A program made the translations under genes and the position numbers. This document shows positions 24,360 to 25,116 of a stretch of DNA of 54,396 bases, piece after piece. Under the pieces are notes generated by a model that saw only the letters and a list, made by a program, of their open reading frames with translations, did not search any database and was not told the origin of the DNA. The first letter of the stretch is position 1. Every line of letters starts with the position of its first letter. Origin of the DNA: Escherichia phage MagusPhagus. Location: sequence record PP925836.1. The stretch is one strand, 5' to 3'.

Positions 24360-24516
24360 GATTTAACCTCATACAAAATGTGATCTATGCCTCTATTTTA
24401 TACAAAATGGCTTTACTGTAACGACTCCATTTTGTATAAAGAGGCTAAAGGAAAGGGATAGAGCAAAGGGATTTAAAAGGCCGGATTAACCGGGGGAAGC
24501 GAAGGAGGATAAGAAA

Positions 24517-24600
24517 ATGAAAAACGTAAACTACCGCCCCAATGAACATGAACGCTATGCGGACTTCATCGAGGAAATGTTAAAAGCACTTAAAAAATAA
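24517..24600 (+). CDS. Micro-ORF (27 aa, MKNVNYRPNEHERYADFIEEMLKALKK), cargo cassette 3
   Basis: Strong RBS GAAGGAGG 7 nt upstream of the ATG. Confidence 0.35.
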   Translation: MKNVNYRPNEHERYADFIEEMLKALKK

Positions 24601-24668
24601 ACAATATGCGTGTATAACTAAGTTAAATGAAGCATTTAGCAAATTAGAATAAGCGGTAGGAGTTGATT

Positions 24669-25082
24669 ATGAAACGGTTAGCAAAAATGGCACTTACTGT
24701 GATTGCCGCACTCGCATTTAACGCGAACGCTAACGAGGCCATAAGCATTAACTGTGAAGAAGTGGCAAACCATGTAGCCGCATATCACGACATGATCAAA
24801 AAAGAACCTGCCGCGCCAGCAATTCTTTTTAAGGCAATTGATAAAAAATTTGAAGGTAAACCAGTTTATGCTCGTTGGTTTAATTATGGCCTTGTAAACG
24901 AGGCCGCTGTAGGCGTAGTCTTTGAAAATAATAGCGAAATAAAAAACAGGATAGCAAACGAGTGTAAGGCAAATAAAGTTGCTTTCGCGGAAAGAATTTT
25001 TAATGAAGGCGGCGCGGGTGCAAAAAATCACGCAATTGTAGATTTGGGTAACGGTTTTATTGATATTGTTAGAATCAAATAA
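24669..25082 (+). CDS. Secreted/periplasmic protein of unknown function (137 aa), cargo cassette 3
   Basis: RBS GGTAGGAG; N-terminal signal peptide with ANA-NE cleavage site; terminator follows. Confidence 0.5.
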   Translation: MKRLAKMALTVIAALAFNANANEAISINCEEVANHVAAYHDMIKKEPAAPAILFKAIDKKFEGKPVYARWFNYGLVNEAAVGVVFENNSEIKNRIANECKANKVAFAERIFNEGGAGAKNHAIVDLGNGFIDIVRIK

Positions 25083-25088
25083 GATGAA

Positions 25089-25116
25089 CGCCCGGATCTA
25101 CCGGGCTTTTTCTTGC
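25089..25116 (+). terminator. Rho-independent terminator after the secreted-protein gene
   Basis: Hairpin GCCCGG-ATCTA-CCGGGC followed by TTTTTCTT. Confidence 0.55.

Follow-up and report, generated by a model that had tools for sequence, protein, structure and literature searches.

An Antisense Cassette in the Tail Operon of Escherichia Phage MagusPhagus Encodes a Conserved Micro-Protein and a Predicted Periplasmic Protein

Escherichia phage MagusPhagus (PP925836.1), whose 54,396-nucleotide (nt) record is referred to here as the window, carries at 24360-25116 a + strand unit made up of promoter-like sequences, a 27-amino acid (aa) open reading frame (ORF), a 137-aa ORF, and a strong terminator. 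This cassette runs antisense to the tail genes and is wedged between the tape measure gene and a gene encoding a DUF6246 protein. It is a tail-operon moron harboring two uncharacterized protein families, and nothing about it is categorically new; its variable-cargo architecture and conserved micro-protein lift it above a routine moron. We consider the odds slightly better than even (a probability of roughly 55%) that this is a moron-type cassette whose Sec-exported periplasmic protein hinders a post-adsorption step of infection by related phages. Tail-operon morons are a known source of superinfection-exclusion and host-fitness factors, with the mechanism known for few of them.

An Insertion between the Tape Measure and DUF6246 Genes

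MagusPhagus is temperate and corresponds to a prophage of the mEp021 group (mEpimmI). The mEpimmI phages, described in 2025, are non-lambdoid, Nus-dependent temperate siphophages that are frequent in human feces (PMC11893012), where they are reported to be as common as lambdoid phages (PMC11893012). Relative to the prophage of E. coli 09-00049 the window is circularly permuted, its first base lying at the stop codon of the repressor gene (1-648, 54396), and the 851 bases around the cassette are 100% identical to that prophage. For comparison, ~90 loci were gathered from GenBank phages, complete E. coli genomes, and IMG/VR contigs found via DUF6246.

In phages with DUF6246 proteins of at most 43% identity, the tape measure gene mostly lies within ~0-100 nt of the DUF6246 gene; a few of these distant loci have gaps of 500-1400 nt at this junction, which lack the cassette ORFs. 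In the mEpimmI clade, 650-1280 nt separate the two genes. The near-gapless junction in the distant phages thus marks the cassette as a clade-specific insertion in mEpimmI phages. The GC content of the cassette is 39-40%, compared with 46-52% in its flanks, and the skews change sign. Of the traits that define a moron, extra DNA between otherwise adjacent genes, a factor-independent terminator of its own, and a divergent base composition are present, and the cassette has a candidate promoter of its own.

An initial, sequence-only reading of the window had described a cargo cassette on the opposite strand inside the tail module, and all of the elements it named were found at the positions it gave. 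The strand arrangement is as described, with - strand tape measure and DUF6246 genes on either side, and the cassette interpretation is borne out by its absence from more distant DUF6246 phages, its low GC content, its conserved promoter-like core, its own terminator, and purifying selection on both ORFs. The same reading took the neighboring gene to be the tail chaperone gene. The DUF6246 gene does occupy the usual position of that gene, upstream of the tape measure gene, but its product matches the Pfam chaperone (TAC) families only weakly (E = 0.15-0.25, below threshold); the chaperone label is thus a putative one, based on position.

A Predicted Periplasmic Protein without Recognizable Relatives

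Inspection of the 137-aa protein reveals the parts of a Sec signal peptide: an n-region (MKRLAK) with a net charge of +3, an 11-residue h-region (MALTVIAALAF) with a mean Kyte-Doolittle value of 2.5, and a c-region (NANA) with alanine at -3 and -1. The predicted cleavage site, between ANA and NE, is the one proposed in the sequence-only reading, and inspection finds the same pattern in 15 of 15 homologs. The protein has no lipobox ([LVI][ASTVI][GAS]C), as there is no cysteine before residue 29 and the cleavage region reads FNANA-NE, and its mature part contains no further hydrophobic segment. Two cysteines are invariant across the family. The signal peptide and the invariant cysteines together point to a soluble periplasmic protein of ~12.8 kDa, probably disulfide-bonded.

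Structure prediction and a fold search, both called for when the protein was first noted, were run and gave a divided answer. The AlphaFold2 model is confident, with a predicted local distance difference test (pLDDT) score of 85 and a predicted template modeling (pTM) score of 0.83, and shows a signal-peptide helix followed by a five-helix bundle and a C-terminal beta hairpin; no fold match was found for this model. Judging from the model, the fold of the product should be a helical bundle outside the known families. Sequence searches gave a similar picture. Seventeen homologs were found in 5.8 billion clustered proteins, and all those with a named source are from E. coli and are labeled "hypothetical" or "uncharacterised"; the searches revealed no relative beyond this clade of phages. 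An exhaustive profile search of 1.8 billion representative proteins returned the protein's own family plus three repeat proteins that match one helix-loop-helix stretch. The repeat proteins, one of which, shown in full, contains EF-hand-like repeats, were judged spurious because the calcium-binding residues are absent from the 137-aa protein. There was no family match in Pfam, PHROGs, NCBIfam, or PADLOC, no match to VasI/TagO (PF11319), and a profile search of the PDB sequences gave a best E value of 0.56.

The family shows a ratio of nonsynonymous to synonymous differences (pN/pS) of 0.20, a pairwise measure that takes no account of phylogeny, and by this comparison the 137-aa ORF is a real gene under purifying selection. 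The number of Asn-Ala repeats in the cleavage region, encoded by an AACGCN hexanucleotide (24720-24735), differs between alleles, giving proteins of 137, 139, and 141 aa, in what looks like slippage in a tolerated linker.

Unrelated Envelope Cargos Occupy the Same Slot in Related Phages

The orthologous cassette of mEp021 encodes gp63 (AXN54182.1, 138 aa), a protein 70% identical to the 137-aa protein, at the same position and with the same promoter core and terminator. In mEp021 an unannotated ORF, MKNYYRPNEHEHYADFIEEMLKALKNKK, lies upstream of gp63. The two cassettes differ in the spacer between the micro-ORF and the cargo gene, which is 13 nt in mEp021 and 68 nt here, and in a third copy of the upstream motif discussed below, which is absent from mEp021. 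In the mEpimmI study gp63 is not discussed and carries no assigned function (PMC11893012), and the exclusion lipoproteins tested there are encoded elsewhere in the genome (PMC11893012). The possibility that gp63 is Ipe, the hemolysis-inducing protein of mEp021, was ruled out: Ipe is 72-83 aa long and is encoded by mEp021_29, elsewhere in the genome.

Beyond this pair, ~60 related loci retain the divergent promoter core and usually the micro-ORF as well, while the cargo is swapped among at least six unrelated families, nearly all of them envelope-targeted (Table 1). Except for the 119- and 116-aa proteins, the mature cargo domains are mutually unrelated by BLASTP. One alternative cargo, a lipoprotein, weakly resembles BamE/OsmE, and neither the 137-aa protein nor any of seven alternative cargos matched a PADLOC model. 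Different cargos are found even in phages whose DUF6246 proteins are 96-100% identical, which indicates that exchange is recent. Several unrelated cargos begin alike (ATGAAACGGTTAGCAAAA, encoding MKRLAK), and this shared start suggests a left recombination junction inside the signal-peptide coding region. On these sequence comparisons, the locus is a hypervariable cargo-exchange slot. A scan of GTDB representative genomes for the slot yielded only two remote Castellaniella loci, which were uninformative.

In having a fixed slot with conserved flanks, a short anchor gene, and fast-exchanged unrelated cargo, the locus resembles acr-aca loci and P2/P4-like hotspots. In contrast to these, the anchor here is an upstream ORF of 27-29 aa rather than a helix-turn-helix regulator, and the cargo is nearly all envelope-targeted. 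The slot thus gathers, at one position of a tractable phage group, at least six unrelated and uncharacterized families of envelope proteins, and mEp021 grows on E. coli K-12.

A Constrained Micro-ORF Precedes Most Cargos

The 27-aa ORF begins 8 nt after an AGGAGG sequence (24503-24508), in agreement with the consensus ribosome-binding site first ascribed to it. It was found in 43 loci, representing 26 distinct nucleotide versions that encode 27-29 aa, and solely in mEpimmI phages when the peptide was compared with the phage collection by tblastn. All 26 versions remain in frame, one 3-nt indel included, and none contains a stop codon. Pairwise pN/pS is 0.07 in the coding frame compared with 1.01 and 1.54 in the other two frames; these are pairwise values that ignore phylogeny, and the contrast between frames is independent of it. 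Variable sites number 9, 4, and 17 at codon positions 1, 2, and 3, respectively. Synonymous divergence is high (pS = 0.48) and the peptide is nearly unchanged, a degree of constraint that matches the first 60 codons of the tape measure gene (pN/pS 0.08). By this frame-specific pattern the micro-ORF is a real gene under purifying selection. It is unannotated in mEp021 and RefSeq and "hypothetical" elsewhere, so that the slot includes a small protein that most annotations miss and that is constrained like a structural protein.

The lack of any family annotation and the absence of the micro-ORF from most annotations would be expected if both ORFs were chance reading frames in a noncoding spacer between tail genes. 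This explanation is hardly credible: both ORFs show frame-specific purifying selection, are kept across dozens of genomes, and have canonical ribosome-binding sites, and there is a confident structure model. The pN/pS contrast between frames rules it out.

It is unlikely, too, that the micro-ORF is merely a cis-acting leader, that is, a translational coupler or regulatory upstream ORF for the cargo. Its strong AGGAGG site would suit such a role, as would its position, since most relatives have a gap of just 10-13 nt from its stop codon to the cargo start, and this gap holds the cargo ribosome-binding site. In the window, however, 68 nt separate the two ORFs and contain no attenuator structure, the extra ~55 nt being peculiar to this lineage (the spacer is 10-13 nt in most relatives). 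The peptide is, moreover, as constrained as a structural protein (pN/pS 0.07, pS 0.48), and ~15 loci carry the same cargos without it. In these ~15 loci a VasI-like or 137-aa-family cargo directly follows the promoter, and the micro-ORF is thus dispensable for cargo expression. Strong amino acid constraint combined with optional presence favors a peptide with its own function over a mere coupler, though the micro-ORF may also have a nascent-peptide regulatory role.

A Compact Divergent Promoter-Like Core and a Strong Terminator

The core upstream of the micro-ORF is an inverted motif pair that occurs once in the window. Comparison of 29 distinct related sequences shows no variation at 12 of the 13 positions in the left copy and 10 of 13 in the right, compared with 6 of the 16 bases in between. 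L059 and L060, two divergent loci whose flanking genes are just 72-73% identical, retain the core as well, and it is the sole upstream element (24391-24441) common to all cargo variants, including those without the micro-ORF. It can be read as two overlapping sigma-70-like promoters, one for each direction (Table 1). The candidate cassette promoter scores 9.5, a value attained by 0.3% of background positions, and the -10 hexamer TAAAAT of the - strand candidate is invariant in relatives. The slot thereby offers a compact, symmetric divergent candidate promoter built from a motif used phage-wide.

Three upstream copies of this motif within 70 base pairs (bp) had been reported from the sequence. 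All three copies of CATTTTGTA are present, at 24372 (-), 24401 (-), and 24428 (+), and lie within 65 bp; at least three copies in 65 bp has a Poisson probability of ~1e-6, or ~8e-4 when corrected for all such windows. Conservation in relatives is limited to the inverted pair (24400-24437), however; where the window has the copy at 24372, mEp021 and phages close to it read cgtaaaaagtg.

The motif is far more frequent in the phage than expected, with 15 exact copies of the 9-mer CATTTTGTA in the window (1.08 expected) and 24 matches to the 13-mer CCATTTTGTAWAC with at most two mismatches (3.6 expected). Some copies are located in early promoter regions, and others precede the late gene found after each of the three + strand cassettes of the phage, of which the cassette described here is the third. 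At 5 of the 15 sites a strong sigma-70 match lies directly downstream of TACAAAATGG, compared with 2.9% of background positions. The opposite grammar, in which the motif supplies the spacer plus the -10 element, also fits, and both orientations are compatible with the data. As the cassette promoter carries this phage-wide motif, it may be phage-controlled rather than constitutive.

Several further features of the motif were observed. The extended form CCATTTTGTAWAC(TT) is over-represented phage-wide (for example at 722, 3769, 40297, 46566, 46634, and 54275), with a + strand bias regardless of gene direction. At 54275 the motif, read on the - strand, abuts a near-consensus promoter (TTGACT-17-TATATT) that faces the gene for an N-like antiterminator. 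We considered whether the motif is a repressor operator and judged this unlikely, because at the early promoter it is present as an asymmetric single copy, where separate ACTTGCA repeats look like operators. These ACTTGCA/TGCAAGT repeats, at 680-790 between the repressor and cro-like genes, are partly palindromic (CTTGC-N6-GCAAG), and from their sequence and setting are candidate repressor operators distinct from the phage-wide motif.

The leader between the core and the micro-ORF folds only into a 4-bp hairpin and as a whole is no more stable than its shuffles. Leader and spacer together are likewise unstructured (z = +0.6), with no attenuator or structure sequestering a ribosome-binding site, and the cassette had no Rfam hit with an E value under 0.17. 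The same combination of hairpin, ribosome-binding site, and first three codons is present before the first + strand cassette of the phage, cassette 1. The 5' module shared by cassettes 1 (12848-12860) and 3 (24481-24493) comprises ATTTAA, a CCGGATKAACCGG hairpin, GAGGAT, and ATGAAAAAC (encoding MKN). In relatives its stem is conserved and its loop is variable. The GGA motifs in the hairpin and in the ribosome-binding site are compatible with CsrA-type control, which is speculative.

At its other end the cassette is closed, as first described, by a stem-loop (25090-25106) followed by a T-run. The terminator folds at -16.4 kcal/mol (z = -4.3 relative to shuffles). Its - strand version has no T-run, and it should thus stop + strand transcription only.

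The distribution of the motif also bears on when the cassette is active. It is conceivable, though improbable, that the cassette is phage-regulated and acts in the lytic cycle, with a protein that blocks superinfection early, protects progeny from debris (like T5 Llp), or modulates lysis. The 15-24 sites of CCATTTTGTAWAC in the phage, some of them beside early promoter regions (722 and 54275) or ahead of the late genes located downstream of each + strand cassette, are consistent with such regulation, as is the leader module shared with cassette 1. By contrast, the cassette is antisense to the late operon and would collide with late transcription; it has the moron hallmarks of low GC content, own terminator, and fast cargo turnover; and sequences like the candidate operators (the ACTTGCA type at 680-790) are absent from its promoter.

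Exclusion at the Envelope and Competing Functions

Precedent for a phage-directed function comes from phage HK97. The first moron described, HK97 gene 15, lies between the tail chaperone and tape measure genes (PMC3594210), and gp15 is a prophage-expressed superinfection-exclusion protein of the inner membrane that blocks DNA entry in a manner depending on the tail of the incoming phage (PMC3594210). The MagusPhagus cassette is like gene 15 in its position in a temperate E. coli siphophage and in consisting of extra DNA with a terminator, a candidate promoter, an odd composition, and a product located, here by prediction, in the envelope. There are clear differences, however. HK97 gp15 is YebO-like and anchored in the inner membrane, whereas the 137-aa protein is unrelated to it in sequence and is predicted to be cleaved and soluble in the periplasm; neither homology to the gp15/YebO family nor a retained N-terminal membrane anchor is found. 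In addition, and unlike gene 15, the cassette is bicistronic with a conserved micro-ORF, lies on the strand opposite to the tail genes, and holds a cargo that varies among close relatives.

Two other groups of phage proteins show partial likeness. T4 Spackle, a small protein exported to the periplasm by the Sec route, blocks a tail-associated step of the incoming phage (PMC7677548), and the 137-aa protein would resemble it in these respects. The Cor/Llp/Lpp lipoproteins, including Lpp021 and Lpp010 of mEpimmI, are prophage-encoded envelope proteins from the tail region that exclude related phages; location and envelope targeting are the shared trait. In contrast to them, the 137-aa protein has no lipobox, and the type of cargo in the slot is independent of the outer-membrane receptor: mEp021, which uses OmpA, and mEp010, which uses LamB, both bear the 138-aa cargo. 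Among the phages compared, no link was found between cargo type and either outer-membrane receptor or Lpp type. Given this independence, any phage exclusion should act after receptor binding.

Collectively, the nearly uniform envelope targeting of the slot cargos, the identical position of HK97 gene 15, and general knowledge of periplasmic exclusion proteins make a prophage-expressed exclusion or surface-modification role plausible by analogy. Since related phages place unrelated envelope proteins in the same slot, the cassette probably shields the host envelope from other phages or toxins. In the mechanism we propose, host RNA polymerase would transcribe the cassette from TTTACT-N17-TATAAA, starting near 24447, and the periplasmic product would act at the envelope on a post-adsorption step of related phages, for example tail-tip or tape-measure penetration and DNA entry. 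Diversification of the cargo would then reflect an arms race, and the - strand promoter-like copies could restart tape measure and late transcription downstream of antisense inserts. If the cargos are exclusion or immunity factors, their comparison with tape measure and tail-tip variants could reveal how siphophage DNA crosses the periplasm.

Several points weigh against this proposal. Activity in lysogens is presumptive, and as the promoter motif has 15 copies in the phage, early promoters among their sites, the cassette could be under phage control and be expressed in the lytic cycle. The signal peptide of the 137-aa protein was judged by inspection alone, and the protein has no homology or fold similarity to known exclusion proteins. 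The VasI/TagO-like and BamE/OsmE-like cargos suggest envelope physiology or interbacterial competition. Finally, exclusion in the mEpimmI study came from an Lpp lipoprotein, the product of another gene, and gp63 was outside that test (PMC11893012).

The same two lipoproteins, one resembling VasI/TagO of type VI secretion and the other weakly similar to BamE/OsmE, give reason to consider a role in lysogenic conversion or competition rather than in phage exclusion. The cargo would then protect the lysogen from toxins that act in the periplasm, such as type VI secretion effectors and colicins, or from envelope stress, or it would change surface physiology in the gut. In line with such a role, immunity proteins are typically small, helical periplasmic proteins that contain a disulfide, and the known morons bor and lom serve host fitness (PMC3594210). 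We regard this as possible but doubtful: no immunity family matches the 137-aa protein in sequence or fold, no effector gene is adjacent, and the position beside the tape measure gene, together with the HK97 precedent, favors a phage-directed role.

A further, rather unlikely interpretation concerns the slot rather than its present cargo: the locus would be a platform dedicated to cargo exchange. The near-palindromic bidirectional promoter, the 27-29-aa protein, and the MKRLAK start would together form a fixed expression-and-export module for recombined envelope effectors, in which the micro-protein may be a functional partner, either as a regulator tying cargo synthesis to the state of the cell or phage or as an effector itself. 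If this were true, the micro-protein would be a guilt-by-association anchor for finding new envelope-acting anti-phage or anti-toxin families.

Table 1. Features of the cassette, its flanking genes, and the cargos found at the same slot in related phages
Feature	Position	Strand	Details
Tape measure protein gene	22011-24359	-	PF20155, E = 3.6e-48; starts at 24359
Third CATTTTGTA copy	24372-24380	-	Beside the ribosome-binding site of the tape measure gene; not conserved
Divergent regulatory core	24391-24441		Inverted pair ATACAAAATGG-N16-CCATTTTGTAT; left copy 24398-24410, right copy 24427-24439
Candidate tape measure gene promoter	24395-24422	-	Promoter scan; -35 GTTACA (24422-24417), 16-nt spacer, -10 TAAAAT (24400-24395)
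Candidate cassette sigma-70 promoter	24412-24440	+	-35 TTTACT (24412-24417), 17-nt spacer, -10 TATAAA (24435-24440)
5' leader	24441-24516	+	Purine-rich; CCGG-ATTAA-CCGG hairpin 24481-24493; AGGAGG 24503-24508
Micro-ORF	24517-24600	+	27 aa, MKNVNYRPNEHERYADFIEEMLKALKK; hydrophilic small protein
Spacer, micro-ORF to 137-aa ORF	24601-24668	+	68 nt; ribosome-binding site TAGGAG 24657-24662
137-aa ORF	24669-25082	+	GGAG 6 nt upstream of ATG; RefSeq WP_065225615.1
Signal peptide coding part	24669-24731	+	Mature protein 116 aa, 12.8 kDa
Intrinsic terminator	25090-25116	+	Stem-loop 25090-25106 (GCCCGG-ATCTA-CCGGGC), then TTTTT; overlaps last DUF6246 codons on the other strand
DUF6246 gene	25098-25784	-	PF19759, E = 1.6e-55; ends at 25098
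Slot cargo: 137/138-aa family			22 loci
Slot cargo: 119/116/117-aa family			Secreted proteins
Slot cargo: 165-aa protein			Secreted protein
Slot cargo: VasI/TagO-like lipoprotein			PF11319, 60.5 bits (cut-off 26.5); followed by a 124-aa lipoprotein or a 106-aa protein
Slot cargo: 35-aa plus 100-aa pair			Membrane-protein pair
Slot cargo: 245-aa lipoprotein			
Slot cargo combinations			137-aa plus lipoprotein; 137-aa plus membrane pair

Other Cassettes and Features of the Phage

Cassette 1 (12745-13165) contains a + strand gene (12889-13137) for an 82-aa lipoprotein with the lipobox LTGC and adjoins the tail-fiber gene. Its product is probably the Lpp/Cor-type exclusion protein of the mEpimmI study (PMC11893012). 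A perfect FNR box, TTGATttatATCAA, lies at 12799-12812, one of two in the window compared with 0.11 expected, and it is spaced suitably for a class II FNR promoter that would start near the CCGGATGAACCGG hairpin. At the sequence level this box suggests anaerobic control of the cassette 1 exclusion gene.

Cassette 2 (21100-22015), also within the tail operon, comprises three + strand ORFs of 51, 84, and 58 aa with their own terminator, and has a motif pair at 21106 (+) and 21174 (-). The 84-aa protein contains a ParE-like toxin domain (PF24732, 32 bits), and with the upstream 51-aa ORF it may form a toxin-antitoxin pair.

Within the late operon, the tail tube and DUF6246 genes are separated by an intrinsic terminator on the - strand (25796-25810; annotated TERM_8 in mEp021). 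Given its location, transcription of the late genes presumably depends on the Q-like antiterminator (44381-45109). The integrase gene occupies 7717-8964, and the attachment junction is near 9062, beside an abgT fragment in the host record. Lastly, a 466-aa protein encoded at 31800-33200 (-) is labeled "anti-CBASS protein Acb1 family" in RefSeq; it scores 73 bits against the phage portal family PF06381, its gene has the position of the mEp021 portal gene, and the Acb1 label is probably an annotation artifact.

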